A program made the translations under genes and the position numbers. The notes under the pieces are model-generated. The model saw only the letters and a list, made by a program, of their open reading frames with translations, did not search any database and was not told the origin of the DNA. A stretch of 64,000 bases of DNA from Vezdaea acicularis (taxonomy: Eukaryota), in the NCBI GenBank assembly GCA_026025075.1, contig JAPEUI010000042.1:62001-126000 (forward strand), in the 5' to 3' direction. Below, piece after piece: positions 26,297 through 64,000 of the stretch. Numbering within the stretch: the stretch's first letter is position 1; each line of letters begins with the position of its first letter.

Positions 26297-26698
26297 GCTG
26301 CGGAATTGCTTCGACGGCTGCCGAAGTAGGTCGGTTTGTTCATCGTGGCTGGAAGTCCATACGAGGATTTCTCAACTCGGTAATGTACCCCGCCGCTCGC
26401 CCACCACCGAACTACAGTACATGTACCAGGCAGGGCTCGTGAAAAGTCAGGCGCAGCCTTGCCCTTCTACAGACATAATACTGAGGGGACTCCGGCGAAA
26501 TTTCTTGTTTCATCTATATATACACGTTTGACAGATGGTGATACGTCGGAGCTTCTGGCTTTGACGGCGACGTTGGTTCAGTCTCCTTGTTATCTGGGGT
26601 AGGGACAGAAATCTGTTTCTCGATATTAATTCATCTCAAGACTTTTCACCATTATCATACTCGAATTTTGGAGGCAACATGCTTCCTCGGCTCCACTG

Positions 26699-34776: not shown

Positions 34777-36648
34777 TCACTCGGCCGACTCCCTATCCGC
34801 CTTATTCGCTTCGGCCACCAGCTTGGCGAAGTCGCGAACGACCTCTGTTGGCACCTTGTCCCACATCAGTGATCGGGTGTAGACCTCTGCGGCGGTGGCC
34901 TTGCTGTTCTCCCGCATAGCCGCGAGGCTGGCTTCGAGGTTACGGCGGTGTTGGGATGGAGATGCGGGCTCGCGCTCGCCAAACTCATGTGAGGTGACGC
35001 CGTTGTACTGTTCCGCCGAAAGACTGAACAGCTGCTCGGCCTCTTGCTCCTTGGTCGGCGTGATCAGATGGTGGCTCAGGACTTCCAAGGATGAGCTTGA
35101 TAGCCCGACCATGCTGGACTCGCCGAAAGCGGTCTTCGAGGGCGCCGGCCAGGCAATCCCGGATGGTGCCGGCTCCAAAACCTCGACTCGGTTGACGTTC
35201 ATCAAGCGCGGATCGGCTTGCTGAATGCCGGCGTCCTTGAAGATGTTATCAAGCACGGTGGCCGAAGCGGCTCGAATATCATCGGGCATCCGTGGAATCG
35301 CTGGTGTAGAAGACGTAGAGCTCTTCGAGGCAACGAAGGCACCGCATAGCAAGAGCTAATGAGAGTAGTCAGTAAGGGCGAGCTGCAGCGAAAGTGAGGG
35401 TACAGTTCACATACAATAAGGAGTAGGCTGGAAGCGGTCGGCTTGTCTTCCTCGCTGATGGCCAGCTTCTCTGCTTTGACGGGGACCAGGGCAGTGTCGG
35501 TTCGTTGATCGGATTCCATGGGAAAGTCGTTGATGACGAAATTCTCCCAGCTGCTGTCCATCGTGATGCTGTCGATGTCGGAAAAGTCGGTGGGATATCC
35601 GGCGGAACTGGGGCCCGTCGAGATGGAAGCGGTCTCCAATTTCTGCACCGCCTCGACGAGGACGGAATTCTTCTTTCGCAGATCACCCGTCTCGAGGGTA
35701 TGCCGCCGGACCATCTCTTCCTTCTCGAACCGCATGTTATCGATGTACTGATCATACTGTGCTTGGGTCGCTTTCCAGTCTTCTCTTTCGCGGCAATGTT
35801 CATTCTCGCGAACCTCCAGTTGTGCGACTTTGTCTTCGAGCTCCGAGATCAGCTCAGTATAATGCTTCTTCTCCTCTTCCAGCCGCTCGGTGTGCTGCTT
35901 CTTGCGTTGACGAGAATCAAGGCTACGGGTCAAAGTCAGTACCAAAATTTCGTTGAAAGGGCCAGGAACGACCAAAAAAAGGTGAAGGGGGGCCCTACGC
36001 AGCCTGCCTATTCCGAAGGAGCCGTTTCTGTTGCTTGAGCTCCTTGATCTCTTGATCGTCGCTCGACTGCTGAATGAGATTGTCGATATTGGTGAGTGTC
36101 CTCTCGGCTGGTATCTCGAATCGAGCGTTCTTCTTGCGGATGCCATCCCGACGCACCAAAGGCGACGTCGGCCGAGGGCTGCTCGGTCGCATGCGTTTGG
36201 GGATTGAGCGGGGGTCCTGCTGTTCTGACGCAATGGACGACATCCAATCTCGTCCGCCATGATGGGGAGAGTGCGGGATCGACACGCTCGAGGAAGAGCC
36301 GGATGGGAAGGCCGTGGGGCGGATGTGACTGGCGGTCGCTATCTCGAAGGGCGCCGTGCCCATGGTCGAGCTCGACAAGTAGGGGGTGCTCGCGGTATCG
36401 AAATCGGTGGGGTAGCCGTCGTACACGGCCATCGGCGTCGTCGCGCCTGAGGCATCATCCCACGACTGATCGAACGAGCTCGCGAAAGGGTTGTTGCTTT
36501 GAAATTTGGTCGTCGATTGCCGCGTACCCAGCTCACCGCTGAACTCGGGTGTTGTGAAGTCGGATAGAATATCTTCGTCGAGCACGACGTCGTCCTCGGA
36601 GAACCTGAACTCCGCCGGCGACCGGTAAAGGTCGCTCGTATACGCCAT
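34777..36648 (-). CDS. bZIP transcription factor (possibly Neurospora ada-1-like)
   Basis: Basic region KQQKRLLRNRQAA|LDSRQRKKQHTERLE joined across intron 35923-35998, then a coiled coil and a hydrophobic stretch (SLLLI|LLCGAFVAS, intron ~35355-35414). The 5' end is uncertain. Confidence 0.85.
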
Positions 36649-39600
36649 GATATCGACTCTCTCTGTGCCAATCCGTGTGTGTGAAGGGGAATGTTCTGCG
36701 TGCTCTGTGCGCGTCGGGTGCAAGTGGGACCAGCGTTGGTCGGCGACTTCGATATAGAAACGAAAGCGATAAGTGATGTGTGGGAAGAGGGGGGGGGAGA
36801 CAAGCTGGGAAACAACTGCGAACCGGCCGGCTTTTGTGGGCTGGCAGAAGTGGGGGGGGGGGAAGGGCAACGAGGGTTGCATGGGCGGTCGGAAGGAAAA
36901 GCGTAAAGTCAGTTGTGGTCAGGAGCTGCTGGCGGTGGGACAGGCTGGTACGGACGGTCTGGTGGTGGTGGTGGAGGAGGAGGAGTCGGCGGGGGGGGCG
37001 ACGGAGCGGGCAGGGATGACTGGGCAAGCTCTTGGCCGGAGTGCATGAAGCGACGCGGCGCCGGCCTATCGTCGCGGGCGCAGATGGCGAGTGTTTGCTG
37101 GGGCGGCCGCGGAAACGACGGGACCGCTGAGCCCGCGGGCGTGAGTGGTGGAGTGCGCATGAAGGGCCGCAGTCTAGCAATCGCGCTGCAGCAATCCCCG
37201 GGCCGGCCAATCGATCGCATCACGACCGCCCGCCGTCGATTCTTGCCCTTGACCGTCTCCCTCAGCAAGAGCGCGCCTCATCGCGAGGTATTGCGCAGGT
37301 CCTGCTCGGTCTCGTCATGTCTCGGCGTCCAAGGCTGGCCGTCACGGGGGAGCCGTCGCGATTGTTCGTCGCCCCGGCCGTCACCCATCCTCTCACGCGC
37401 GCCATGTTTCTGATGTCTGCCCCCCGCTGCGAATCATGGCGAGAGCTGGGTGATGTTCGGGGCCTTGCTTTGGGCCCCTCCCAGCGTCGGCGGGTGAGGC
37501 GATCAGCGCCCTCGCAGATGAACGGTCGAAGAGGCATCGCGGTCGGTGCAATGGCAGCTTCAATGCCAACCCCGTTGGCTCGCTCCCCAACGCCCCTTTT
37601 GGCCGTGAGACGGGGGATACGACGAGAGGTGGAGGCGAGCAGAGCTGGACTGGGAGCTGGGGGGGGCATCTAGACGCGTGCTGGGCGCGTCGACCTCCCG
37701 TCGCTCGGCTGCTTTCGTCCTCGAGCAGGAGATGGAGGACGCAGATCGACGTGGTGCGCAGAGAGCGAGCAGCGTCGAACGGCGAGTGATAGGCGCAAGG
37801 GCGATGGAGAGGAGTGGAGTGAGAGCGAGAGTGATAGAGCGAGAAGGCGAGCAAGAGAGGAGGTGAGAGCGAGAGGCAGCAGGCGGCGGCCGTCCAGCGG
37901 AAAAGAGGCCGGTGCAGGTGCCGTGCGTGGGAAGCCGGAAAGCGGGCAAGACTCACTCACCCCCAGCGCCAGTCCTTGCGCCTGTCAGCGCGGACCAGGG
38001 AGCGGCCCGGACGGACGACGGGCGCTCGCCTGTTCGCCTGTCTGCCCGCCGAAGCCTATCGCCATCCCGGCCCAGCCTATCCCAACGTCCGCCCATCGCT
38101 CGCGGCCCCTCCAAACCCTCCCACCGTCCAAGAGTCCCCAGTCCCAGTCCCACGATGCCCTTGGATTAATTGCTCTCGGCACCGGGGCGCCCGGCGTGCG
38201 CCCGCGGTCGGCGCCCATCTGAGTGGACGGGGAAGGGCACGGCGGTCCGAGTCGGGCCCGTGTTCTGCTGGGCGAACCGTCGGGCCTTGCTCGCAGCGTG
38301 CTCGCGTCGTCCGTCGTGAGTCGTTGAAGGAGGAGGGCAGGACGCCGTGCCATCGAGCGTAACGTGCGAGCATCGAGATCGTCCCACGCGGCGAGGACGT
38401 TCGTGGTCGAGGCCGCCGCCGCGCTTCACCAGTCGAGGACGGCCGGGCGTGGCAGGCCAGCCATCGCACCGCAATACCATTATCGCATCCATCGAGACGC
38501 TCCGAGGCAGGTCCTCGATGAGACCGCGGCGAGCAGACCGAGTCCTCTCGTCCAGGAATAGAAGAGAGGAACGAGGGTTCAGGCGCTTGCGACCTCGTCC
38601 CCGCACCGGCGTCCCCAAAGCGGCGGAGGCGTCGGGCCCGAACGCGTTGGTGCCCGCCGCCGACCACGGAGCCGAGGCTGATCCGGGAGCTTCCCATCGA
38701 CCTGACGGGCGCAAGTGCAGTGTCGATCGCCGCCGGGAGAGTGAAAGAGGGAGAGGGGATGAGGGGGATGAGGGGGATGAGGGGGATGAGGGGGAGAGAG
38801 GGAGAGAGGGAGAGAAGGAGAGTGGAAGAGAGGAAGACAGGAAGCGGGCGACGACGCAGCGCAGGACCGTTGGGACGGATGCCAAGGACCGCACAGTCCG
38901 TTGGTGGTGGTGGAAACAATTCGGCCCCATCAAAGGGCGAGAAGGAGGGGGGGAGTCGAGGCTGGAATGGCATCAAACCGGCCACCTGCCGATCCGCGGG
39001 GGTGGCTGCGCGGGGCCAGCTCGAGAGCGGGGAAGGGGAAAGGATGTCGGCGGCAGGAGCGATGGAGGATGGATGATGAGGAAAAGAAAAAGGAAAGAGG
39101 CTTCGAAGGGGGAGGGGAGTGACCTTGTCCCCCACGCAGGTCCTGGGCTGGTAGTGAACAGCAATCCCGCTCGAGGTGGGCAGACGATACGTAGAGGGTC
39201 GATTGAGGATGCATGAATGATGGAGAGGTACGAGAGGCGTGACGGGCAAGATTCTCCTCGACGGCCACGCACGACGCACAGAACATGCAAAGAGACTTAC
39301 TTCCCCGCAACGGTCACGTCGGACGGTTCGGCCCCACGTCTTCGCGTCTCACTTCGTCCGTCCCAACAATTGAGTGCGTGAGCACGGTCATTGATCACTT
39401 GTATCGCTCGCATTTCACCAAGGCGATTGGCTCTCGGCGGACCGAGCGGCTCTCGACGCCTTGGCTTTCCGTGATGAGGATTATTCGTTGGCAGACATAG
39501 GGTACGATGCCCTGGAATCGAGGTCGAGCGGGCTGTCTCGCATTTCGCTCGGCGTGGAAGGAGGGAGGTGCGATGGGGATGGCAATGGGAGCCCTTCCGG

Positions 39601-44740: not shown

Positions 44741-46054
44741 ATGGATCCTCAAACTGTCAGAAAAGAGCTTCTGGACATCGAATCCTCAACAACCCCACCG
44801 GACAAAAGTCCTAGATACGAGCGCTTACTCCATTCCATACTTGAGGACTCCCGACCCGACACCCTCTCCCAAAATTTGTCACTTATCCTTGATTACTTAT
44901 TGGATTATACTCTGGGTATTGTCGCTTCGAGACCTTTACTTGCGCGTTTCGTCGGTGCTTTGAGTTCCGTCTCTTATTCAGATGTCAAGATTGAGGTTGG
45001 ACAGCACGCAATCGACTTGCTCCAGCCTCGAATTGTAGCCTTTGAAGAGGAAGATGCGAAGATCAGAGAGATGATGGCTGCCACATACGAGGCACAGGAG
45101 GATTGGCTCTCTGCTGCTAAGGTGCTCAAAGACATACAACTGGAAACTTCACAGCGGAAAATTCTAGACGACGATAAGATCAAAATATGGATCCGAATAA
45201 TACGCAATTTTCTTGAAGAAGACGATACAGTTAGCGCGGACATATATTTGAATCGCGTCAAGACCTTGATCTACAAATGTCAGAACCAAGAGCTATTGCT
45301 AATGTTCAAGCTCTGCAGCGCACGAATTCTTGACGCTCGCCGCAAGTTCCTTGATGCTTGCCAGGCCTATCTTGACATGAGTTTTTCCCCTATCGTTGTA
45401 GAGGAGGAAAGGATGCGGGCCTTATCATCGGCTATAGTATGCGCGGTCCTGGCGCCTGCTGGTCCTCAGCGATCTAGAACGCTTGCAAAGCTATATAAAG
45501 ACGAGAGATCAGTCCAAGTTGATGAGTTTAGCATACTCGAGAAGATTTTCTTAGATCGCCTTCTGTCTCCAGCTGAAGTGGAGAACTTTTCCAAAAGATT
45601 ATCAGAGCATCATCTCGCTAAGAGTGCTGATGGATCTACGGTCCTTGCGAAAGCTGTGATCGAACACAACCTTCTAGGAGCCTCTCGAATCTACGACAAC
45701 ATCGGTACAAAAGATCTCGGTGTATTGCTAGGGCTCACCGGTGAGGAAGCTGAGGGATATGCTGCTCGTATGATTGAACAAGGCCGCTTGTCTGGCAGGA
45801 TCGACCAAATTGATCAAGTCATATTCTTCGACGGTGGGGATGGGAGTGGGGAGAGGACGACCGCTGGCCAAGCAGACTTGGTTGTTGGCAAGGAACTCAG
45901 GAGGTGGGATTCAAATATCCAAGGTCTTGCTGAGGACGTAGAAAGAGTCACTACCCTGCTGCAAGACCACTATCCTGTTAGGAGGCAATCTTTCGATATT
46001 GAAGTCTTTGGCTAACAGAGCTAGGATTTTGTCGCCGCGAATCTTGTCCATTGA
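44741..46054 (+). CDS. CSN4: COP9 signalosome subunit 4
   Basis: ARILDARRKFLDA, LAPAGPQRSRTLAKLYKDER and PCI domain AVIEHNLLGASRIYDNI...IDQIDQVIFF. Short last exon DFVAANLVH* after intron 45977-46024. Confidence 0.95.
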
Positions 46055-47152
46055 AATGATAACTCGCAATATTTTGATTGGCATTTACCAAGGATGGTAT
46101 AAGGCGGCTTTCAAAGACTGGACGAAGGCGAAGCAAGCATCCCATGAGATCAGTTGCTCGGTAAATTTTAGCCCGACAACGTCTCTGCAGCCGCGACCGG
46201 TTCGCCTGAATTGCAAATGAATGGCTTATTGATTCAGGTGCATTGGGCAGCTGCGCCGGCTAGTCTCTTTCGTTGGGCACATCTGAAGAAAGAAGAGAAA
46301 TGGCTGATCTTGGCCATCATCACAGAACCCCTCCTAACGTGTACACCACCGTTTTCGAAGGTATGACTCCTGTGTGAAGGAGGTAGCGCCCGAAAGCACA
46401 TTTTCATATAATCAATATCCTGGCATTCTTCCCAAATGCAGCAATCTCATCTGAGCCTTGACTGCTCTTTTATCGCATTTACTGACACTCTCGCTGAGGC
46501 TAGCTCTTGTCCCTTTCAGTGCCTTCATGCAAGCAAGGAACTTCTAGCCATCCTTTCTTCGAAGGTTAAGCCTTTATCCACGACCTTACACGCAGTCTTG
46601 ACTTGAACGCTCCTCCGAGAGACTCTACTTACCTAGTAAGAACGGCAACGCAATCGGCATTACTCGGGGTCTTATCACAACAGCCCAGACAGCTAGGTAC
46701 CATTTAGAACTATCGAGGTTCTGGTTTCAAAGGAATAGGAGAGTCGTGAGCTACAATGACTGTCAGATAACTCGGAATTGTAGGCTTTCCCCATCTACTA
46801 TAAGGAGCAAGTAGAATAATGAAATTATTCTTTGTTATAAGAATACACGGGTGACATTTATTTTGAGACCAACTCTCAGCCATGTCCAACTGACTACCTG
46901 CTTACTGCTAGATGCACCATGCATGGGTGGAATACTGAGGCTTCTGGTATTCGATGGTGTTGATACGGTTCTACGGGACTTGAGATATAGCCGGAATGAG
47001 TGAAGGTGTAGACCAGTTTCAATTATTTAAATTAGCTCCTATATATAGTATAAATCCATCTCTACTTAGTAATTGTCCTAAAATTGAATAGAATTGTGAA
47101 TAGTGATATATATAAGAGAGAAAAGCTATAATGGTGGGTGGAGGGGCTGGTA

Positions 47153-48952
47153 TCATCTCAGAGACCGATGAAAAGACTCTAGCAGCTTTACCACGGCCTT
47201 GTGCCCACCCGTAGCGGCCCTGTCCAGCGCCGTCCTTCCAGACTCATCCTTCGCCTCGACGTTGGCCCCCTTCTCCAGCAGCAGCTTGACCATGGCCTCG
47301 TGCCCACCCGCAGCGGCCTCGCCCAGCGCCGTCCTTCCAGAGAAACCCTTCGCCTCGAGGTCGGCCCCCTTCTCCAGCAGCAGCTTGACCACGGCCTCGT
47401 GCCCACCCGCAGCGGCCTCGCCCAGCGCCGTCCCTCCGAAGAGACCCTTCGCCTCGAGGTCGGCCCCCTTCTCCAGCAGCAGCTTGGCCACGGCCTCGTG
47501 CCCACCCGTAGCGGCCCTGTGCAGCGCCGTGCTTCCAGACTCATCCTTCGCCTCGACGTTGGCCCCCTTCTCCAGCAGCAGCTTGACCACGGCCTCGTGC
47601 CCACCCGTAGCGGCCCTGTGCAGCGCCGTGCTTCCAGACTCATCCTTCGCCTCGAGGTCGGCCCCCTTCTCCAGCAGCAGCTTGACCACGGCCTCGTGCC
47701 CACCCGTAGCGGCCCTGTCCAGCGCCGTCCTTCCAGACTCACCCTTCGCCTTGACGTCGGCCCCCTTCTCCTGCAGCAGCTTGACCACGGCCTCGTGCCC
47801 ACCCGTAGCGGCCCTGTCCAGCGCCGTCCTTCCAGACTCATCCTTCGCCTCGACGTTGGCCCCCTTCTCCAGCAGCAGCTTGACCACGGCCTCGTGCCCA
47901 CCCGCAGCGGCCTCGCCCAGCGCCGTCCTTCCAGACTTACCCTTCGCCTCGACGTCGGCCCCCTTCTCCAGCAGCAGCTTGACCACGGCCTCGTGCCCAC
48001 TCGAAGCTGCCCATGATAGCAGTGATTGACCGTTATCATCCATCGTGTTGACTTTGGTATCCTTATCGACTTTGGCATTCTTATCGAGTAGTAGTTTTAC
48101 GACGGTCATTAACCCTTTCTTGGTAGCCCACCAGAGTAGTATGTTTCCGTCGTCGCGGCATTTCTGTGCTAACACTTCTGCGCTTTCGACGTCCTCGTTT
48201 TCAAAGTCTTTATTCTGTAGCAGAAATATGGCGGTCCCTCGATGACCTCCATCAACCGCCAAGTGCAATACCGCAGCCTTGTCCGCCGCTGTAACACGGG
48301 CATCTTTAAAAAGCGTCTGTACTATATTCTTGTGACCGTTTCGAGCTGCTCTGTTCAGCGCCTTGTCTTTGTTGTTATCTTCCTTCGAAACATCGGCACC
48401 TTTCTTGACCAGCAACTGCACCACCTCTTCGTTCCCATTCTCGGCTGCCCAGTGAAGTGCCGTCCGTTTGCAGTTGTCCCCAGTGTTGATAAGTGCCGTC
48501 AGTTTGCAGTCATCCCGAGTGTTGGTATCATCACAGATCTTTTTCTTTTCAAGGAGCTCCTCCACAATATCCTTGTGCCCTCTAATTGCAGCCTCGTGAA
48601 GTGGAGTCCTCCCATCTGCATCTGTGAGAGTACATTTCGGATCCGCAAATTCTATGAGACGCTTTACAAACTCCCCATATCCAAGAGTTGCCGCCCAGTG
48701 CAGCGCAGATCTCCCGAGTTCGTCCTGAGCGTTGACATCAAGCGCGGTCTCTCTCCTGGATATCGTGAGAGTGGACGTGCGCCTTTTGAGCAGAGATTTT
48801 TGTATTTCATCTGGTTGATTCTTAATTGCAGCAAAATGAAGCTTTGTTTTTCCACTACGTTTTCCGACAACAGTGTTTGTCCGTTTCAGCTTTGGCATCT
48901 GGAGACCTCCATCCAGTCTGTTGGTTGATACGACGGGAGATTGCTTCTCCAT
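47153..48952 (-). CDS. Ankyrin-repeat protein with a C-terminal array of near-identical repeats
   Basis: Divergent N-terminal ANK repeats (GRSALHWAA, GRTPLHEAA, KRTALHWAA) followed by ~9 repeats of SGxTALxxAAxGGHEAVVKLLLEKGAxxEAKxx. First ATG at 48952; the ORF-track start at 49114 is TTG. No NACHT/NB-ARC seen. Confidence 0.9.
   Translation of the reverse strand: MEKQSPVVSTNRLDGGLQMPKLKRTNTVVGKRSGKTKLHFAAIKNQPDEIQKSLLKRRTSTLTISRRETALDVNAQDELGRSALHWAATLGYGEFVKRLIEFADPKCTLTDADGRTPLHEAAIRGHKDIVEELLEKKKICDDTNTRDDCKLTALINTGDNCKRTALHWAAENGNEEVVQLLVKKGADVSKEDNNKDKALNRAARNGHKNIVQTLFKDARVTAADKAAVLHLAVDGGHRGTAIFLLQNKDFENEDVESAEVLAQKCRDDGNILLWWATKKGLMTVVKLLLDKNAKVDKDTKVNTMDDNGQSLLSWAASSGHEAVVKLLLEKGADVEAKGKSGRTALGEAAAGGHEAVVKLLLEKGANVEAKDESGRTALDRAATGGHEAVVKLLQEKGADVKAKGESGRTALDRAATGGHEAVVKLLLEKGADLEAKDESGSTALHRAATGGHEAVVKLLLEKGANVEAKDESGSTALHRAATGGHEAVAKLLLEKGADLEAKGLFGGTALGEAAAGGHEAVVKLLLEKGADLEAKGFSGRTALGEAAAGGHEAMVKLLLEKGANVEAKDESGRTALDRAATGGHKAVVKLLESFHRSLR
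47182..48000. repeat. 99-bp tandem repeat array (~8.3 units) encoding ankyrin repeats
   Basis: The GGCCT(C/T)GTGCCCAC core recurs with an exact 99-nt period from ~47190 to ~47990. Confidence 0.97.
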
Positions 48953-49353
48953 GTCTGTTCGTTTCCGTACAAGATGTGGATATTCATAGCACAAGACAAA
49001 AATCAACCGAAAAGAGCCGTGATTCTTTATAAAAGAGAAACAAGGTCTAGCCTTTCCAAACGCCTTCAGCCTCGTCGCACCTGAAAAAATCGAGGATCCA
49101 TTGATAGGAGCCAATCAACCTCCATAAGCCCGTGTCGATGCGCCAAGGTGGCAAAGATATTGCCCCGTTTGTTAGTATCCATTTAAAGATCACACACGGT
49201 GCGTATTTCCTGCGTATAGCCTTGGGAGTCAAGGAGCGGAGTAGTGGTGCTGCGAACCACAGTTTTTCTTCTCAAAAGACAGATTGAGAGACCGGATCAG
49301 AGCATTTATCTGGGTCTCAATTGACATTTGCAACACCTTAAATCTCAATAATA

Positions 49354-51204
49354 ATGTCTACAGCTTGTCTCTGTCTAGCGCTTCTTCTTTTGTCCCCTGC
49401 CGCTCTTGCTAGCGACGCGGCCCGGCCCGAGGATCGTCCGGTCGGTTGGCAAGGGGCCAATCACCGGCGCGGCACTTGGGACATCATCATCAATTGTTTA
49501 ACCACGTTCATCGCCTGCACGTGGAGTGTTCAACATCTCAACGTTCCAGCAGAGGAAAACAGTCAAGAGAGTTCGGCAGAAGAACAAGGCGGACTCTTGG
49601 TTCATCTATGGCGGGCCTATTTGGCGAATACTTGGCGGCGTATGTGGCGACAACTCAAGTGGATGATTATCACGACACTGTTCCCTGAGCTAATCGTCAT
49701 TCATGCCTACCTCGAGCTCACTATGGCCCTCAAGGCTCTCTGGCGTATGAAAGGAAAGGGTAAGTCCGTTGAATTACCGTGGTGGTCCGACTGGCGATCT
49801 CTGTCATGGCCGCGAGGCTGCTTCTCCACAAGGCAGGAAGAGACAGAGGTTGAGAAGCAGCTTAACACAAAAGTACAGGCTGAAGTTGACAAGAAGTGGA
49901 CGTTGACTCATTGCTTCTTTGCCAACATGGGAGGCCTATACTACACCACAGAGAAAAGCCCGCCATCTATTTTGACAGCCGTGCAGCTTGCAGAAGAGTC
50001 GGAATTTGAGCAACCAGAGATTTCCGAGGACGAGATTAAGGACAAGAGCAAGCAAGATCTGTTTGCAAAAATTTTTGCAGTTTTCCAGATTCTGTGGCTT
50101 GTTCTGTCCATCATCGTCCGAAAATTTCGAGGATTAGCCTACTCACAACTTGAGTTAATCACATTGGTTTTCGCAGTGTGTGGCGTGTGCATTTACTTTC
50201 TATACTTCTATAAGCCTCAGAACGTGGAAAGAAGGATACGCATTGGACAAAAGAAAGAATCTCTAAAAGAAGCATCGTCCCGGGGTGGTCTCCAGCAGAC
50301 TAATTCAGAAAGAGATGCCTCTTCACAATCCCAGAAAATCAAGAAAACATACGATAGTCTCTGGGATGTGCTGATGAACAAATCACATTCTACGAGCGAT
50401 TCTAGTCATTCGCCTCTCATAAGGGTTCCTAATGACAACATTCCGCTTTCTAAGAGCCATGTTGCCCATTCAGCCGTGGTTTTCTTGGCCTTTGCGTCAG
50501 GTCTCTTCGGCGCCCTGCACGCTTTTGCTTGGGATTTCGAGTTTCCTTCTCGAGTAGAAAGATATCTTTGGCGAACGGCTACTTGCGTTGCCGCCGGCAG
50601 CCCCTTTGTTGGGCTGATTACGATACCGCTGGCGCAGCTGACACGCTCAGCCGGCGATCCCGAAATCTTCAAGGCAAAATGTCTGCGCTTAATGAGCGAG
50701 TATTCTTGGCATGTCTCTGACAAAGGCCCAATCAACGCCGCCTATGAGAAACTCGAGCATACTATCGTTTTTCCCGAGAATGACCAGCAGCAACAGTATG
50801 TCTACATATTCTCAGAGGGGCCAGAATCGAACGATGCTCAAGCAAGACAACTTGCAGGGAATCTGCTCGACTTCTTAGAGCTGAAAGAAGACTTTTTGGG
50901 AAAAAAACCACAAGAGCTGCACCACGATAAAGAATTGATTGGGCACTTCCAAACACTGGTTAGCATCATTGAAGGACATGAGTCTAAAAGACTTATCGAT
51001 CAGGCTAGGACAGACATTTTTCCACAGAAGAATGTGTTTCACAAAAGTTTTAATCAAGGTATTGTTGTTGTGACGACAATTCTCTACTGCCTAGCCCGTC
51101 TTTCAATCCTTGCTGTCGGATTCTCAAGCCTTCGCTCGATGCCAGATTCTGTATATGTGAGGACGCCTTGGACGACGTTCATTTCAGTGGCCGGATCAGG
51201 TTAG
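49354..51204 (+). CDS. Multipass membrane protein of an uncharacterised fungal family, with signal peptide
   Basis: Signal peptide and several hydrophobic helices. Recurrent family motifs RGTWDII..C..T...CTWSVQHLNVP, WM..T.LFPE, WTLTHCFFANMGG, EIKDKSKQD, KPQNV, FGALHAFAWDFEFPS..ER.LWR and LYCLARL...SLRSMP.SVY. Intronless. Confidence 0.85.
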   Translation: MSTACLCLALLLLSPAALASDAARPEDRPVGWQGANHRRGTWDIIINCLTTFIACTWSVQHLNVPAEENSQESSAEEQGGLLVHLWRAYLANTWRRMWRQLKWMIITTLFPELIVIHAYLELTMALKALWRMKGKGKSVELPWWSDWRSLSWPRGCFSTRQEETEVEKQLNTKVQAEVDKKWTLTHCFFANMGGLYYTTEKSPPSILTAVQLAEESEFEQPEISEDEIKDKSKQDLFAKIFAVFQILWLVLSIIVRKFRGLAYSQLELITLVFAVCGVCIYFLYFYKPQNVERRIRIGQKKESLKEASSRGGLQQTNSERDASSQSQKIKKTYDSLWDVLMNKSHSTSDSSHSPLIRVPNDNIPLSKSHVAHSAVVFLAFASGLFGALHAFAWDFEFPSRVERYLWRTATCVAAGSPFVGLITIPLAQLTRSAGDPEIFKAKCLRLMSEYSWHVSDKGPINAAYEKLEHTIVFPENDQQQQYVYIFSEGPESNDAQARQLAGNLLDFLELKEDFLGKKPQELHHDKELIGHFQTLVSIIEGHESKRLIDQARTDIFPQKNVFHKSFNQGIVVVTTILYCLARLSILAVGFSSLRSMPDSVYVRTPWTTFISVAGSG

Positions 51205-51497
51205 TCGGTACCGGCAGAGACTGTTTGAAAAAGCAAGATCTGCTGGACAGGATTTTTCGTATGATCACTTGATTCTACATAAACGCTCATGTTGCTTCTT
51301 TTCAAAAAATATTTAAAGGCAAATGTCACAGGGTTGAGCTGGAAACCTGCAGAATGGAGTGTATGGCGTAAGGCATCTGGCAGAAGGCATGGAAGCAAAT
51401 AAATCATCTGAAATCAAAGCGAATGGATTGCTCACAGCGTAGTATTAATAGATAGCTTTGTCCTTGCATTTGCTCCTTACAGAGTGTCTTGTAATTA

Positions 51498-51953
51498 CAG
51501 TGAAGCCTCGACATAAGGATGGCCTCGGGACCGGCCAACCCATCCTTACAGCAGAGGTATTCCTATATCCAGGTATCACGTGAAGAAAATCAAGGTCATG
51601 TGCAGAGAATTAATCCAGTGAATATCTAGCACTACAATAGAATGCATGATGTGTAGAATAATTGCATCTTACAGCCTTATTTAGATTGCATGTGATCAGA
51701 ACAATACAGTATTTCAGCAATATGCTGGCTGTCTTGAGTGAAATATGTTATTTGATATCTGCTATCTGACTGGTCTATAACAGCTGTAAGGATATTTTGA
51801 TGTAAAATTTAAGTGTGGGGACCAAAGAAATTAAAAATATCCTTAAGGTGAAATAAATCCTTAATTACCACCAAAAAGTATTGGGACCAATGAACTCATC
51901 CTTACTGGTTGGGTATTCTTGTATTGAATCATTCTTATGTCAAGGTTTCACCG
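51498..51953. mobile_element. Non-autonomous Tc1/mariner (pogo-like) element / MITE, 456 bp
   Basis: Left end TA|CAGTGAAGCCTCGACATAAGGAT versus reverse complement of the right end TA|CGGTGAAACCTTGACATAAGAAT. TA flanks both ends; no ORF. Confidence 0.85.
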
Positions 51954-52731
51954 TAATAGCAATCACTTTCATCTTACCTGCAGTGCCTTCAGGGCTTCAC
52001 TACCTGTATGTTTGTTTCGTGACAACAAATGAATAAAATGTATTTTAATTTGCAAAAATGAACTCTATAGTTTTTTTACCACCTAACCTAACAATCTAGA
52101 GTGGAGGGTCGTAAGGATTGTACATTTGCAAAATTGTGTCTTTTATTATTATCAACTTACCTTCCCGTGATCTAGCTTGCAGAACGACTGCGTTTAACAA
52201 ATGCTAGGGATACATCATGTGATCACCGTTATATAAAAAAGCAGTGAAGCATTGTAAAATAGCTTCTTAGTATTCAATCGTATCAATCTTGAGAGATATT
52301 TATTGAATACTATCTACTATTTACTATTGCCTGCAACTTGCATGCAATACGCATGCAACCATTTAAAATGAAGCTAATCTGTTGCCAGTCTATACACACG
52401 CGCCTTACACTTATTGTCATAAATCTATCTTTCCTATAATTTAGCTTGCAGAACAATTGCGTTTAGCAAGCGTTGAGTATACATCTGTTGTGGAATAATA
52501 AGCAAGAGGCAGCGATGAGCCATAGGAGCAGGAAGCAAGTACGTAATATACCAACAGAAGCAGCCTCCTCATAGCGCCTGCCCATAAAAGCAGCGCTATA
52601 AGGCATGCGATTGCTCTGTAATAGACAGCGCTTATTGCGCTGTCCTGACTGGGCAGTTGTGACCTGCATATATAGCATATCTTTATAGATAGAAACAATG
52701 CAACTCTTTGATCATAAACTTATATCAGAAC

Positions 52732-53087
52732 TGTCAGGGCACGGGTGTCCTAACGCGTCAGGGCACTAGGCGTCCTGATATAGTATGGGGATCAAAGAGT
52801 TGTATTTCTTCTATCTAGGAGGATACGCTATATATACAAGTCGTCACGTGCCAGTCACGACTACCCGGTCAAGACAGCGCGGCAAGCGCTCTCTGTTGTA
52901 GGGCAGTTGCATACCGCATAGCGCTGCCCCTATAGGCAGGCGCTATACAAAGGCTGTTTATATTAGTATTGCTGCGTAGTTACTTCCTATCCCTGTATCC
53001 TGTCGCTACCCCCCTGCTCCCATATGCAGGTGTCCCACAAGAAGAACGCTTTGTCCTTAAAGTGTCTGGACATCTCGTGCCCTGACA
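52732..53087. mobile_element. Solo-LTR-like element, distant relative of LTR family B in reverse orientation
   Basis: Ends TGTCAGGGCAC...GTGCCCTGACA. The start resembles the reverse complement of the 54128/59567 LTR. No matching TSD found. Confidence 0.6.
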
Positions 53088-53105
53088 ATATTTTATGATC
53101 ATTAT

Positions 53106-53565
53106 TGTAAGAATGGACACAAGCTCTGCTCCTTTTCTGAAAGCATGGCAGGCATATAACGTCTGTGTCCTGCTTTTGGCAAGGAAACATACGCTCAACA
53201 AGGTATACACAAGCTACAATAGCTAGATATAATGATATGCGGCGGATATAATGATAATTGTTTAATTAAATAAGGCGATATAGAGATAATAGGGTCATAT
53301 AAATATAATAATAATTGCCCAGTTAAATGAGGCAATATAGAGACAATAGGAACATAAAAATATAATGAAATCTTTTAGGATCTAGCTATAGCATATGGTA
53401 GGAAATTATTTGATGACAAGCCATCAGAGTGGCATCATTGAGCATATATAGATAAGGAGTTTGATCAGCGTTGTCTCTAGACTAGACTATAAGCAGCAAT
53501 CATCTTATTTAATCCACCATAGCTCTGCTAGCAAGCCATCAAAAAAATCACTACAGCGTCTTACA
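53106..53565. mobile_element. Solo LTR (family D), 460 bp
   Basis: TGTAAG...CTTACA termini with a perfect 5-bp TSD ATTAT. Degenerate inverted copies at ~55820-56194 and 56543-56956. Confidence 0.8.
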
Positions 53566-53618
53566 ATTATCATATACGTATAAGAATAAGCACAATAGAT
53601 GCCTTTAAAGCTGAAAAT

Positions 53619-53996
53619 TGTAAGGACAAGCATGATAGCTGCCCTTGATTTTGAGAGCGTGGTAGGCCAGCGCCGTCTGCGGTCCGCCTACAGTGTTGCC
53701 GTGTGTTTAATAGGCTATAGAGGTAGGTGGGCCGCCAGCGGTAGCTAGCGGTGTCACAAGGCTATATAAATATAGCGATATAGCAATATAATGAATAGGC
53801 TGCGATTACATAAATAGATTCCAAGAACTAGCTATGAGTCAAGACTATTTAATGCCGCATCCCTAGCGGAATTGACTTGATATATATATAAAAGGCGCGC
53901 TGACTAAACGCCTCCTGAGCGCCACCGGCGTCCAAATAAGAACAGCTGTCTAGGGCACGCCGGCGCGCCCTAGGCGGATGCCATCGCGTTTTTATA
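53619..53996. mobile_element. Solo LTR (family A), 378 bp, transition-mutated
   Basis: Colinear with 57546-57923. Flanks AAAAT/AGAAC are compatible with a 5-bp TSD after G>A and C>T changes. Confidence 0.85.
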
Positions 53997-54127
53997 AGAA
54001 CATAGTAAGATAATCCACATTTGCATCCCGCCTGCAACGTCTCTGCATGTTTAATGGGCTATAGAAATAGATGGGCCGTCAACAATAGCTAGAATATCAT
54101 TAAGCAGTGTAGGAATATAAATATAAT

Positions 54128-54471
54128 TGTTATGGGACACGAGGTAGGGGGCGTCTAGGCAGGAGAAAGCATCGCCCGGACATAGGAGCTAAAGGGTAGT
54201 GGCATCTGGACGCAAGGATAAGGAGCGATCATATGGCGTCTACTAATAGGGGCAGCGCTTGTACGTCATGCGACTGCCCTAGGACAGACAGCGCCTGCCG
54301 CAACTAGCAGCGCTGTCTTGTCCAGGCAGCCACAACCGGATATCCTTTGCCCTATATATATAGATGAATCCCCTAGCTAGATGAATGGAACAACTTCTTC
54401 ATAAACACCGTTTACTGACAGGACGCCCCGTGCCCTGACGTATTGATGCCAGGACGCCCCGTGTCCTGACA
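54128..54471. mobile_element. Solo LTR (family B), 344 bp
   Basis: TGTTATGGGACAC...GTGTCCTGACA with a perfect TSD ATAAT. Near-identical to 59567-59908. Confidence 0.9.
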
Positions 54472-56542
54472 ATAATGATATAACAGATGATCTGCAGTTA
54501 TGTGGATGGATTCTAATAACTAGCTACAAGCCAAAATTATTTGATGTCAAAGTTTCTAACGGGCTTGATTTAGTATATATGTCAGTAATACGCTGAATAA
54601 ACGTCTTTTACGCGCCGTAGGTGCGTAAACAAAAACAGTCCTCTAAAACGTGCTAGCATTTGTCATTGTGTTCTTACATTATTTAAGTTAATTCTTAAAG
54701 ATTTATATCTATTTTTGTTATAAGACAAAAGTTAATATTTATCTAAGCCATTATATAATGACTGTACTAGCTCCTAGCTTCTATCCAGACTTTTGGGATA
54801 AATAAAGGGTAAAAGAACTAGCTTTGCTTCAGCTTTGCTTCTATTTTGCCTAGCTTCCTAGCACCTAACATAAAACCAAGTAGTTTTTATATCACTTGAC
54901 CTAGACGAGCGTAGCTATTAGAGCTACCACGTTCTTTAAGATAGCTCTTCAGTAATCAACTCATCTATTCATCTGAATAACTAGTAGAAAGGCATCCTCG
55001 CTCTACTTTGTCTAATTTTTGCCTTGTCTCATCTTGCCTCCTTGCCTTGCCCTAGCTACTATCACTGCAATTAATTTTTGCCAGCAAGTCTTTGAGCCCT
55101 TGAGAATTAGCCCATACGCCTACAGACTCTCGCCTCCTGATGAAACACTGGCCTGTCCTTACACATTAACCCTTGAATTAAACTAATTAATGTTTTAATC
55201 TGTTAAATAGTAGATAGATAAAAAAAATTTAACATTTATTTATTTTATTTATATATATGTGCAAAAAACTTTATAAAACAACATCAATACTCTTTATAAA
55301 TGTTTTTTTTTCCAAAATTTGACATGCATTCACTTATTTTCTGAAGTTTTTTGTAGAAAGCCACCAAAACTTTTGCTTAAGCTTATTGATGAAATTATGA
55401 CCGCTAAATAAGATAAACCTTTGCTTAGAACATAGCTTAAGAAGAGTAATGATCAGCCTCTTTTAAATATATTGCTAATGGCGCTACATTATGGATTTGT
55501 AATTAAATAGTTTTTTACACCCTGGCAGTATATATGATATCTCCTAACTCATATCATTATATTTATTTAAGATTATTATACTTATTATATTGTAAAAACA
55601 GAAGCGGCATATGTTTAGAGCGCGCTAACGCGTCTTAAACAGCTATTTTTGCTTGAAAACCAGCAGTTCTTAGGAAATGCTTAGTTAACACACCTTAGAT
55701 ATATATATTGAGTTAATTCCGCTAGGAATTTGGCATTGAATAGTTTTAACTTATATTTAATTATTAGAATTTACCTGTTAAACGTTGTTATAACTTTCTC
55801 AAAAGCTTACCGGCGGAGCTATGGCAAACTGAGCAAAATAAACGCCGCTTAAAGTTTAGCTTAAAGGAAGCGACTATTAAACCTTTTATCTATATATGTC
55901 CAATAGTGTTACCCCAATAGCTCATCATCAAGTAGTTTTATTTTTATATTATAGCTAGATTTTACAGAATTTTATAATAATTCTATTATATCCATATGAG
56001 CTCATTGTTTTCATATTACCCTATTCAATTGGGCAACTATTATTATATCCGCCGCATATCATTATATCCAGCTATTATAGCTTCATAGTCCGCGTACATT
56101 TTTCTAAATATATGCCTTCTTGCTGTAAACAGAACGCAGGTGTCATACATCTGCTACGCTCTTAATAAGGGCAGAATTTGTGTTTATCCTTACATTACCT
56201 ACATAATTGCAGATCATCTATTATATAGCTATAAATTATATTTTTATACTGCTCAATGATATTGTTAGCTATTGTTTGCGACTTATTGACTCTAATAATT
56301 CATTTAACATGCAATGACATTGCAAGCAGGATGCAAACAATAATTGACCTATCACGCTCTCAGAATCAAAAGCAGCTATTGTGTTCATTCTTATAATTCT
56401 GTTTAATTTACCCTTAAAAAGAAAGCCTGATAGCCGTTGGCAGACATTAAATAAAAATACGCAGAGGTATAGAAATATCAAAATTATCTTTTACAACAAA
56501 AATAATTAATAAAAATAATAGCATCATGAAAAACAAGCTAAT

Positions 56543-56956
56543 TATAAGACACTGCTGTGACTTTTTTGGTGGCCTGTCAGCGGAGTTATAACAGACTAAA
56601 CAAGATAAATGTTGCCTAAAACCTAGCTCAAAAGAAACAATAATCAAGCCTTTTACCTATATATGCCGATAACGCTATTCCAATAGCTTGTTATCAATTA
56701 GTCTTCTATCATATGCTATAGTTTGATTCTACAAAACTTCATAGCAATTCTATTATATCTACATGAGCTCATTGTCTTTATATTATCCTATTTAATTAAG
56801 CAATTATCATTATATCCGCGGCATATTATTATATCTAGCTACCATAACCTCATAGCTTGCATACGCCTTGCTGAGCATATACTTTTTTGCCGCAAGCAGA
56901 ACGCAGGCGTTGTACATCTGCCACGCTTTTAGAAAAAGAGCAGAACTTGTGCTTGT
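56543..56956. mobile_element. Degenerate family D LTR (inverted relative to 53106-53565), truncated by a further insertion
   Basis: Starts TATAAGACACTGCTGTGACTTTTTTGG, matching the reverse complement of the 53565 end, and shares the TATATCCGC.GCATAT.ATTATATC.AGCT block. Confidence 0.65.
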
Positions 56957-57001
56957 TGTAGAACAACGGGATAAGAGCAGGGAGTAGCAACAGGCTATAG
57001 A

Positions 57002-60529: not shown

Positions 60530-63500
60530 TCACCGTTGACGTTGTCTTCTCCTCTCCCTTTCATACGCCTCTAACGCCTCCTTCGCGTTATCCAGGTTGG
60601 CTTTAGGCTCCCACGTGTCTTCCGCCGGTGGGTAGCCTTCCCATCGTACTAGGTATTGCTTATCCCTACCGGATCCTCGCTCAGCGAGGATCTTCTCTAC
60701 AACCCATTCTTCTTCCCCTTCCACTAGCTGGGCTGGCTGTCCCTGCGGTGCTCTGGCGGAGCCCTGGTAGGGCTCTAGGCAGGAGACGTGAAACACCGGG
60801 TGGATAGCCTTGTATGATGTTGGCAGCTTCAGTCGGTAGGCTTGCTTGCCTATGATTGCTTCTACCTCGAACGGCCCTAGCCAGCGGTGGTCCAGCTTCT
60901 TGTTGGGACGTCTTGTCTTTATGTTTCGTGCCAATGGTAGGACGAGTTGTCCTATAGAGAACTCTTGTGGCTTATGGCGAGCGTTGTAGTAGGTCGCCTG
61001 CGCCTCTTTGGCGGCCTTCCATTGGGCCGCCATCTCCCCCCTGATCTCTATGAGCCTCTCAATTCTCTCGCGTGCTGCCGGCGCCTCCCCCTTAGGGGCA
61101 TCGTCCTCGATGTCCTGTGGTGCCAGTGGTAGGTATCCCATCAGGGCCTTGAACGGCGTCTCGCCCGTGGCTGAGTGCTTACTTCTATGTAGGCAAACTC
61201 TGCTGTGGCTAGAAGCGATACCCAGTCATCCTGGTGGTAGTTGGCGTAACATTGCAAGTATTGCTCCAGCGTCTGGTTCTGTCTTTCCGTCTGGCCATCT
61301 GTCTGCGGATGGAATGCGGTGCTCAGCCGTCGTTTTACCTTCAGGTGGTAGTATAGGGTAGACCAGTATTGGCTGGTGAAGATGCTCCCTCTGTCCGTGA
61401 CGATTGACGCAGGTGTGCCGTAGGTTCTGATTACCTTTTCAAAGATAATGTCAGCAAGGCCTATCGCGTCAAGAGTCTTACAGATAGGGATATATTTAGC
61501 CATCTTTGTATAGCGATCGACTATCACAAGGATAGCGTCGTAAGCCCTTGGTCCCCCTTCGCCATCCGCTGCTTTGCCTGCGGGGGCTAGGCTGGGGGGC
61601 AGTCCCGTGATAAGATCCATGGTGATCGATTCCCATGGCTCACTGGGTGGGGGCAACGCTTGCATCTCCCCGTAGGGCTTATGCCGTGGTGCCTTGGTTC
61701 GTTGACATATGTCACATTTGCGGACATAGTCGGCGACCTCCTTTCTGAGGGTCTGCCAATAGTATTTTCGACTAAGTAGAGCCGTTGTCCTGGCGGCTCC
61801 AAAGTGCCCCGCGTACGGGTTGTCGTGGTAGACCTTCATGATCTCTGCCTTTAGGGCTGCGTCTTTTGGTACGTATACCTTACCCTCAAATCGCAGTAGT
61901 CCCCTGTTGTCTACACGCCACTTTTCAGGGTGCGATCCGGCTACGGTTTCCTCGCCATCTCTCAAGCTCTTCTTGATGTCTGCAGTCAGGGTGTCCCTGC
62001 GCTGCGTCTGTGATATCAGCTCGAGCAGGAAGGGGCTCGGGTCCCCATATGCCGTTTCAGTCCTGGCAGCAGTCACTGCCATAAACCGTGGTACGAGATG
62101 CGTCGGCGCACCAGTAACAGCCATCCGTATTCCCGGATGGCCTATCGAGATGGAGTCCCCGTCATGGGGGCTTCCACTTCTCTCCTCTGCGTCAGGGTTG
62201 CGGCCCTTCGGCGACTGGGGTGCGGCCCAGTCCTTAGTAGTGACTGCTACCGTGAGTTCTGATTGTCTTGGGTCAATGTCCATAGGGTCCCCCCTTAGGT
62301 GTTGCCTTTCATTATCCTGCTGATCCCGCAGGTTGTTCACAACACTCTCAGCAAGAGAGATTTCAAATTGGTACGTTGTACTGTCGGTGGTAGTCCCACG
62401 TACAATGCGTACGTAGGCCTCGATACCATCCTCGGCCTCAGCCAGATAGGCTAGTTTCCTTTGTAGGGTGGGTAGCATTGACGCTCCCAATTCCTTGTCT
62501 TCTACCCCGTAGTCGGGTCTTCTGCTAGGCCCACCGGCGGGGTTGTTCTTGCCCGGCCGATATTCAATTTCAAAGTCGTAGGCGGCCAGCATCTCGGCCC
62601 ACCGGCCCTGCCGGTTGTTGAGCGACTTCGTGCTCATGAAGTATTTCAGATTGTTGTGGTCCGTCAGGACCCTGATCGTATGGAGGCTACCTTCTAAGTA
62701 GTGTCTCCAATGCTTAAATGCCTTGACTATGGCAAGGAGTTTGGCGTCGTGCGTTTCGTAGCGAGTCTCTGCGTCCTCCATCTTTTTCGACCAGAAGGCG
62801 ACTGGATGCCAGTGGCGCTGCGTGCTATCCACTGGCGTGCCGTCCGCGGGCTAGGAGAGGATTTCCGCAATGGCAAAGCCGGAGGCGTCTGTTTCTACAA
62901 GGATCCTCTTCTTGGGGTCGAAGTGTTGTAGCACAGGGGCGGTAGTAAACGCCGTCTTCAGTTCTTCGAAGGACCGCAGCCCCTGAGCCGTCATTTCAAA
63001 AGGGCCGGTCTTCCTCCCGTTCTTGCTCCCCCGCAGCATCGTCGTGAGGCCGCTCGCGACCTTCGCATAGCCCTTCACAAATCGTCTGTAGAAGTTGGCA
63101 AAGCCTAGGAAAACCTGCAGCTCCCTGAAGCTCTTAGGAACGGGCCAGCTCCGGATAGACTCGACTCGGTCCTCTTCCATAGAGACGCCCGTAGGTGATA
63201 CGACGTATCCCAGGAAGCCAACCTTAGTCGTATGGAACTCGCACTTGGACAGCTTTGCAAATAAACTATATTTGCGCAGCCTGTAGAGCACGCTGGCGAC
63301 GTCCTGGTGGTGCTGCTGGAGGTCGGTCGAATACACCAGTATATTGTCCATATAGACGACACAGCAGACGTCCAGAAGGTCCGACAGCGCCTCATTGATG
63401 TACGCTTGGAATGTCGCTGGAACATTCGCTAGGCCGAAGGGCATGACCTGGTATTCCCAGTATTCATACCGTGTGCGGAACGCCGTCTTCCACTCGTCTC

Positions 63501-64000
63501 CCTCCTTGATCCGTATCCTATGGTATGCGTCTCGGAGGTCCAGTTTGGTGAATATCGTCGCCCCCGACAATCGGTCCAGGGTTTCGCTGATAAGGGGTAA
63601 GGGGTGTTGGTTTTTTACCGTCATCTTGTTCAACCTCCTGTAGTCGACGCAGAGCCGCAGGCTACCGTCCTTCTTTGAGACAAAGAGTATTGGAGCTCCA
63701 GCAGGGCTAGTGGATCTCCTAATCCACCCCTTTGCCTCTGCGTCCTGGAGGTAATCCCGTAGGACTTCTAGTTTCCTCTCGGAGAGGTTGTAGACGGGCA
63801 TCCATGGTGGATCCCTCTGCGTTACGATGGCGTGTTTTTGGGCGTGGTGGAGGGGCAGCTCACCAGCCGCCCGCTCAGAGAAGACGTCTTCGTATTCTTC
63901 ATACTCTTTGGGGACTCCTTCCCCTGCTTTCACGTTTCTCAGGCGCGCCCCCTGGGGGTTTGTCCATTCCCTCTGAAAGACAGCGTACGCTCGATCTCCT
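60530..64000 (-). pseudogene. pol: pol polyprotein (RT, RNase H, integrase, chromodomain), inactivated
   Basis: RT LRLCVDYR, KLDLRDAY and YMDN (catalytic YxDD mutated). RNase H ETDASG followed by a TAG stop at 62851-62853. Integrase HHCC and GQTERQN with a 1-nt frameshift near 61187, GPF motif, and chromodomain YLVRWEGYPPAEDTWEP. Confidence 0.95.

Follow-up and report, generated by a model that had tools for sequence, protein, structure and literature searches.

A head-to-head ankyrin-repeat and membrane protein gene pair conserved among filamentous ascomycetes, a candidate membrane-coupled recognition module

Non-self recognition in fungi is understood almost entirely through NOD (nucleotide-binding oligomerization domain)-like receptors (NLRs) and a few het loci. 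Here, we analyze a gene pair of Vezdaea acicularis in which a gene for an ankyrin protein with near-identical repeats lies head-to-head with a gene for a multi-pass membrane protein. The pair is located in a stretch of 64,000 nucleotides (GenBank assembly GCA_026025075.1, contig JAPEUI010000042.1, positions 62,001 to 126,000 of the forward strand); we refer to this whole stretch as the window, and all coordinates below are window coordinates unless a locus is named. An initial annotation had proposed the pair as a candidate NLR-independent non-self recognition module. We found that the two genes recur side by side and in the same orientation in distantly related filamentous ascomycetes. Fungi are already known to have both two-gene recognition loci and repeat arrays that are hypervariable, and what we rate as new is this architecture together with its membrane partner; a search of the literature, with supplements outside its scope, found no published account of the pair, of the membrane protein family, or of six locus tags of its members.

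The described proteins that the array resembles are the ankyrin-array NLRs. According to the published account, NLRs of the Pa_3_8560 type (Podospora anserina; PNP_UDP/NACHT/ANK) have near-identical 33-residue units with signs of concerted evolution, differ in repeat number between near-identical alleles, and vary at the hairpin/loop and the inner helix (PMC4986451), and the array described here, or that of its orthologs, has counterparts to each of these features. In contrast to these NLRs, the ankyrin gene here encodes neither a nucleotide-binding nor an N-terminal effector domain but has a conserved ankyrin N-domain instead, and it has a fixed membrane-protein neighbor. A second group of described systems comprises two-gene allorecognition loci of fungi, exemplified by the NACHT-ankyrin gene Bcvic1 with the syntaxin gene Bcvic2, by plp-1/sec-9, and by het-Z (PMC11138114). 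The locus analyzed here is like these loci and cwr-1/cwr-2 in that a variable recognition gene (putatively so in the present case) is tightly linked to a membrane or membrane-associated partner and divergence is locally raised; it is unlike them in that no NLR, SNARE, lytic polysaccharide monooxygenase, or DUF3433 protein is present, as judged by Pfam, and in that conservation of the pair extends over different classes and is not limited to a species. In HET-S/NWD2, too, a repeat-bearing gene adjoins a membrane-acting partner (PMC4344463). In comparison to that system, none of an amyloid motif, a HeLo domain, or a NOD was detected in the pair here, and the partner is an integral multi-pass protein rather than a soluble pore-former. 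In plants, ACD6 and BDA1 are ankyrin-transmembrane immune regulators, in each of which the two parts are fused into one protein that has a PGG domain. The pair here would likewise couple ankyrin repeats to transmembrane helices, which in ACD6 and BDA1 occurs in an immune context; however, the membrane protein has no match to PGG or any other Pfam entry, and no fusion to ankyrin repeats is present in 23 long members of its family.

The pair consists of the following elements:

47153..48952, minus strand: ankyrin-only gene, 599 amino acids, no intron (uninterrupted open reading frame [ORF]; Pfam matches to ankyrin families only)
48041..48952, minus strand: conserved N-terminal part of the ankyrin gene, residues 1-304, about eight diverged ankyrin repeats plus a basic KRRTS leader (from the ortholog alignment)
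47153..48040, minus strand: array of nine 33-residue (99-bp) ankyrin units, of which units 2-8 are near-identical and the last is shortened by the stop codon
48953..49353, no strand: divergent intergenic spacer of 401 bp, presumed shared promoter region (from the ORF coordinates)
49354..51204, plus strand: gene for a multi-pass membrane protein of 616 amino acids with a signal-peptide-like N-terminus (uninterrupted ORF)

As the initial annotation had stated, the two genes diverge from a spacer of about 400 bp and are intronless: the ankyrin and membrane ORFs are head-to-head and each uninterrupted on either side of the 401-bp spacer. Using tblastn against the metagenome locus L001, residues 1-615 of the membrane protein and residues 1-497 of the ankyrin protein align without breaks, and the absence of introns follows from the end-to-end colinearity of both ORFs with their orthologs.

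Scanning metagenome contigs with an alignment of the membrane protein family gave 80 loci, of which 10 carry a close ortholog (34-50% identical over most of the query). Of these 10, eight (L001, L002, L003, L005, L006, L013, L015, and L025) include enough upstream DNA (at least about 700 bp) to be testable; L004 and L007 include just 354 and 129 bp, respectively. Based on tblastn, an ortholog of the ankyrin gene is located directly upstream and on the opposite strand in all eight testable loci, where the genes are separated by roughly 375-940 bp. Because L003 and L006 are near-copies, these eight loci represent seven lineages. Among the other 70 loci, which carry distant paralogs, ankyrin matches were found only in L017, in a gene of the NLR-like kind at a distance of about 3 kb or more. 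By tblastx, the window and the key loci, as well as the key loci among themselves, match in the two genes only.

A profile of the N-terminal part of the ankyrin protein, compared with the membrane-family matches, added at least 12 same-contig pairs among the matches listed. Consecutive locus tags are present in three of the 12 (Trichoderma virens TrVFT333_006784/5, Apiospora marii PG985_008090/1, and Metarhizium acridum J3459_011907/8), and the other nine were placed together by a proxy, i.e., contigs of exactly equal size. The number is a lower bound because 112 non-self membrane matches were set against 120 listed ankyrin matches, all to proteins of 47-573 amino acids, a range that excludes even the window's own 599-residue protein. 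Among the nine pairs placed by the proxy are those of Metarhizium rileyi, Diplogelasinospora grovesii, and Trichoderma chlorosporum. The species in which the two genes were placed together thus come from the Amphisphaeriales and the Sordariales and, in the case of Trichoderma and Metarhizium, from the Hypocreales. In a maximum-likelihood tree of 66 membrane proteins, obtained by a quick search and with long branches in six rows, one branch parts the 19 paired proteins from the 30 checked unpaired ones (Shimodaira-Hasegawa-like approximate likelihood-ratio test, 96), and none of 500 label shuffles did as well. The paired side also holds proteins from Penicillium, Talaromyces, Periconia (sister to L015), Mollisia, Xylaria (sister to L002), and Trichoglossum.

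Because the ankyrin gene is head-to-head with the membrane gene in 8 of 8 testable loci and shares a contig with it in 12 further cases, the pairing is not due to chance. To judge from gene order and sequence conservation, the pair is an ancient, co-inherited two-gene module of filamentous ascomycetes. The maintenance of linkage and orientation where all other synteny has been lost provides strong evidence for a joint action of the two products, which almost certainly work with each other. Co-occurrence of the two families in other genomes, on which the initial annotation had staked its proposal, was thus found; the fusion of both into one protein that it had also envisaged did not appear among the 23 long family members.

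The 599-residue ankyrin ORF matches the Pfam families Ank_2 (E = 3.1e-124) and Ank (E = 1.5e-106) in 10-12 stretches and has no Pfam match to NACHT, NB-ARC, or an effector domain, in agreement with the initial annotation. Residues 1-75 have no Pfam match, including to N-terminal effector domains of the HET, HeLo, PNP_UDP, or patatin type, and ankyrin repeats follow directly. In the alignment, residues 1-304 are 35-56% identical to the N-terminal parts of 12 orthologs. The closest relatives are ankyrin-only proteins of 359-657 amino acids with 40-52% identity over 86-97% of residues 1-304; they keep the same leader and start codon region, and their diverged repeats follow one another in the same order. 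Lower among the matches are proteins of the NLR type, which carry GPIID_WHD or NPHP3_N-type Pfam entries. In all eight loci inspected, a few hundred bases separate the start of the ankyrin gene from the membrane gene, and there is neither a trace of a NOD nor coding room for one. Because the family to which it belongs consists of ankyrin-only orthologs, the gene is, by these comparisons, not the remnant of a truncated NLR.

The leader of the ankyrin protein contains an RR-x-S/T motif (KRRTS, residues ~66-70, 48740-48760), which precedes the first conserved ankyrin repeat and is present in 6 of 13 aligned orthologs. We take this motif to resemble a basophilic kinase site of the protein kinase A consensus type.

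The nine 33-residue units of the array form the C-terminus of the ankyrin protein and were detected by Tandem Repeats Finder at 47181-48012 with a period of 99, 8.4 copies, and 92% matches. Six of the units are in pairs that are at least 85% identical. Among units 2-8, 13 of the 33 codons vary, and the recurrent multi-state positions are unit positions 1, 2, 3, 5, 9, 10, and 13, which are located at the tip of the hairpin and where the inner helix begins. The same hairpin/inner-helix face is randomized in designed ankyrin binders. In the study by Dyrka et al., this face is also reported to be hypervariable in NLR ankyrin arrays, with the variable sites on the concave face, and highly conserved ankyrin repeats to be rare overall, making up 1.2% of repeats in dikarya (Dyrka et al. 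2014, PMC4986451). In pairwise comparisons between the units in the window, the proportion of non-synonymous differences is 0.112 versus 0.018 for synonymous differences. Compared with the consensus, the variant states comprise 20 non-synonymous and 1 synonymous, with 27% synonymous expected (binomial P = 0.011). The GC content at third codon positions is 0.81 in the array versus 0.51 in the N-terminal part of the same gene, an excess compatible with gene conversion that is biased or with the unit being of foreign origin. Runs of near-identical units are also present in the L001, L002, and L015 orthologs, each with its own consensus; in the L015 array, the hairpin holds nearly all of the variation, length variation included.

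The membrane protein has no match to a Pfam family, and no Pfam family recurs in 45 members. As the initial annotation had suggested, it begins with a signal-peptide-like hydrophobic segment (residues 1-19) and has several transmembrane helices: hydropathy and the structural model together show further hydrophobic helices at about residues 41-57, 104-122, 237-255, 268-286, 374-392, 409-429, and 570-593. The AlphaFold2 model, based on a 45-sequence alignment, has a mean predicted local distance difference test (pLDDT) score of 80.9 and includes a helical domain (residues 430-565). When folded on its own, the N-terminal half was modeled poorly (pLDDT 59). There is no sequence match in the PDB below E = 0.5, Foldseek of the full model against the PDB gave nothing at E ≤0.001 (template modeling score about 0.10), VIA-align gave generic helix bundles only (Z at most 9.5, mostly residues 266-594), and there is no match in PHROGs. 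A search of 5.8 billion proteins, which scores word-sharing candidates only, gave 113 relatives, all from Pezizomycotina and all unnamed or "hypothetical," with the top non-self match 49% identical. The superfamily comprises 7886 representative clusters at E ≤0.001 and 267 at ≤1e-30, and the protein atlas has "hypothetical protein" clusters only. No extra Pfam domain is present in the 23 long members, in which the match to CoV_NSP2_C (24.9 bits) is below the cut-off of that family.

Many polar residues are invariant in the alignment of the membrane protein, e.g., N191, K233, R256, E267, N360, D361, H389, and E402. The short loops contain many Arg and Lys residues; based on these positively charged loops and the positive-inside rule, and provided that the signal peptide is cleaved, the large conserved loops are probably outward-facing, an orientation that would suit an executioner no better than a receptor or an enzyme. 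The protein encoded in the window also has a 22-residue acidic/hydrophobic stretch (49549-49640, residues ~66-95) that is specific to the window, absent from seven orthologs, and modeled with low confidence. Because GT...AG borders are missing, this stretch is an insertion and not an intron.

Seven public sequencing runs contain part of the stretch, and four of them were compared with the window. In three runs, all from one study, the differences from the window are 1.0% at 46900-47292, 6.2% at 47973-48630, 4.6% and 4.2% at 48291-49860 and 48609-49860, respectively, and 0.7-1.5% at 49833-51300. Overall, 47973-49860 differs by 4.2-6.4% versus 0.7-1.5% in the flanks at 46900-47292 and 49833-51300; that is, the N-terminal part of the ankyrin gene, the spacer, and a few hundred bases at the start of the membrane gene are 4- to 6-fold more divergent than the coding and non-coding flanks. 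Because these runs are from one study and probably one strain, the divergence peak counts as one observation. A 450-nt skip in X4 has just 23 letters on its shorter side, and no copy number is readable from it. In the run from another study, which also contains both genes, the difference is 5-8% over the entire stretch. Elsewhere, the ankyrin protein P0114 and the L001 gene, which come from different archives, match at every aligned residue (414 of 414), the sole difference being two gaps of exactly 33 residues each. Thus, the locus is not monomorphic, whereas monomorphism is what the initial annotation had considered damaging to its proposal. Among same-species records of the membrane protein, those of T. 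virens are ~98% identical over the aligned parts, those of T. atroviride are identical in 460 of 515 columns, a 15-residue gap included, and two "T. viride" records are 70% identical; as the records may be alleles, paralogs, or mislabeled species, these comparisons are uninformative.

The explanation toward which we lean, tentatively, is that the pair forms a membrane-coupled recognition module in which the conserved ankyrin N-domain serves the partner and the C-terminal repeats are an evolvable binding surface that was recently re-expanded and diversified in this lineage. According to this model, both genes would be read divergently from the one short spacer. The cytosolic N-terminal part of the ankyrin protein, with its ~8 repeats conserved to the same degree as the membrane protein, would work with, and probably dock on, the membrane partner. 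The C-terminal repeats would be free to evolve and, in this lineage, may recently have been expanded and homogenized by unequal recombination or gene conversion, with variation falling on the hairpin and inner-helix positions that are the usual ankyrin binding face. The array would bind a variable ligand, be it an allelic partner or a cue that is biotic or non-self, and the membrane protein would be either the output or the thing being watched. The binding of the two proteins to each other, the binding of a ligand, and any role in non-self recognition are what we infer here.

Several observations weigh against this model. Units that are at least 85% identical are present in just 4 of the 19 paired ankyrin genes, the other 15 having ordinary diverged repeats, and in 1 of 13 further orthologs with an unchecked partner (P0116); short-read assemblies may under-represent such arrays. 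The synonymous deficit of the window array is absent in the other near-identical arrays (synonymous/non-synonymous, 10/13 in L001, 19/26 in L002, and 10/20 in L015). Because near-identical units are found in 4 of 19 genes and a non-synonymous excess in one of four arrays, "hypervariable sensor" describes the state of a lineage and not a fixed property of the module. The hypervariability claimed by the initial annotation thus holds for the window array, which varies at the NLR-type positions, but not for the paired genes in general. The two-unit difference between P0114 and L001 reflects either a repeat-number polymorphism or a collapsed short-read assembly, the latter being unfavorable to the model. 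The divergence peak stems from metagenome contigs of one study, and the array itself is in contigs of 35-121 nt in all four runs. By Pfam, neither protein contains a NOD, a death domain, or another effector domain, and the loops that probably face outward would leave little cytosolic surface for an ankyrin partner. Finally, the spacers contain no conserved word above shuffled controls; the top shared 7-mer, CCAATCA, is present in 5 of 8 spacers, and shuffles reach 6.

Nearly as likely as a recognition module is an ordinary adaptor pair, in which the cytosolic ankyrin protein would serve a membrane enzyme, transporter, or receptor of non-immune role as its subunit for regulation, trafficking, or scaffolding, and the array would be a neutral recent tandem expansion that recognizes nothing. 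This explanation accommodates the conservation of the pair as a unit, the ordinary diverged repeats in 15 of the 19 paired orthologs, the three of four arrays without a synonymous deficit, and the many invariant polar residues, which are as expected of an enzyme or transporter; moreover, the recurrent RR-x-S/T motif in the leader suggests regulation by a kinase. It does less well with the window array, in which 20 non-synonymous states versus 1 synonymous state cluster on the binding face, and with a divergence 4- to 6-fold above that of the non-coding flanks. The carriers are also patchy, with no Neurospora, Aspergillus, Colletotrichum, or close Fusarium among the 113 matches, which are word-sharing candidates only; this pattern of genera suggests an accessory rather than a core gene.

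The distant paralogs of the membrane protein have neighbors of their own. An NB-ARC (+ DUF7779) gene is the upstream divergent neighbor in L037 (3-2559, minus strand) and L050 (2-694, minus strand), probably one gene from two samples, and a HET-domain gene has this position in L076 (958-2679, minus strand). In total, NLR or HET neighbors occur at 2-3 loci among 45 upstream ORFs versus 1 NLR in 76 distal control ORFs, which is not a significant difference. In L017, a gene for an NLR-like protein with PNP_UDP, winged-helix, and ankyrin domains (11412-15170, minus strand) lies ~3 kb downstream of the paralog, and its ankyrin units are 49-54% identical to the window array. L026, L033, and L035, of which the latter two are identical on the tree, all have a GTP cyclohydrolase II gene upstream, indicating that a different subfamily has its own conserved neighbor. 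In a wider version of the recognition model, which we regard as doubtful, the pair would be an ancient NLR-independent two-component recognition system whose C-terminal array can be re-expanded and diversified in the manner of an NLR sensor domain, and fungal immunity would use the superfamily in general as its membrane output or guarded target; this version fits the presence of NB-ARC and HET genes head-to-head with two distant paralogs.

The more specific proposal of a sensor-executioner or het-type pair, in which the array would bind a non-self ligand and the membrane protein would then kill the cell independently of an NLR, appears improbable. It shares all of the support for the recognition model, known fungal recognition genes adjoin membrane-associated partners, and NB-ARC (L037/L050) and HET (L076) genes neighbor the paralogs among the 45 upstream ORFs scanned. 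However, the fold search returned no more than generic helix bundles (Z ≤9.5), the neighbor enrichment amounts to 2-3 loci and is not significant, the predicted topology would place the conserved loops outside, and most lineages keep the module with ordinary repeats. Linkage without a joint function, due to a compact bidirectional promoter or a historical accident, is quite improbable in view of the adjacency and orientation kept in seven metagenome lineages and at least 12 further contigs, where the other flanking genes are all different, and of the otherwise complete loss of gene order in the same loci, in which the membrane protein is just 34-53% identical. That the ankyrin gene is the C-terminus of an NLR minus its NACHT/NB-ARC and effector domains is very unlikely: its unit resembles fungal NLR arrays and NLR-type proteins are found lower among its matches, but its closest relatives are full-length ankyrin-only proteins with the same leader and start codon region, none of the eight loci has room for or a trace of a NOD, and the window ORF has no NOD match in Pfam.

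The interest of the pair lies in an NLR-type, rapidly evolvable ankyrin array that exists outside any NLR and is tied, over deep evolutionary distances, to one member of a huge membrane protein superfamily. If the recognition model is true, it would represent a new architecture in fungal immunity and would mean that diversification by repeat arrays is not restricted to NLRs. Even for an ordinary adaptor pair, the pairing would give the first functional handle on the superfamily, by way of a defined cytosolic partner. As the pair occurs in tractable species of Trichoderma, a clean experimental system is at hand.

The pair lies between a core gene and transposon-derived DNA, as the initial annotation had placed it. 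The gene on the side of the ankyrin gene is the following:

44741-46015: CSN4 (PSMD12/CSN4_N + PCI), by Pfam

On the other side, an AT-rich block at 51205-57000 (GC 0.30-0.41, TpA/ApT 0.93-1.06, without an ORF of ≥120 amino acids) separates the membrane gene from a retrotransposon and, by its dinucleotide indices, looks like repeat DNA degraded by repeat-induced point mutation. The retrotransposon is represented by a Ty3/Gypsy-type pol at 60533-63999 on the minus strand, which is in three adjoining ORFs, runs past the end of the window, and includes RVT_1, RNase H, integrase zinc-binding and core, Tf2-1 SH3, and chromodomain matches. Elsewhere in the window, 35200-39350 has a GC content of 0.60-0.68 and many long overlapping ORFs on both strands, none of them with a Pfam match. 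At 26630-28365 on the plus strand, a HECT_2 (E2-binding) gene is present in two ORFs that cover profile positions 1-197 and 198-369, the split presumably being due to an intron.

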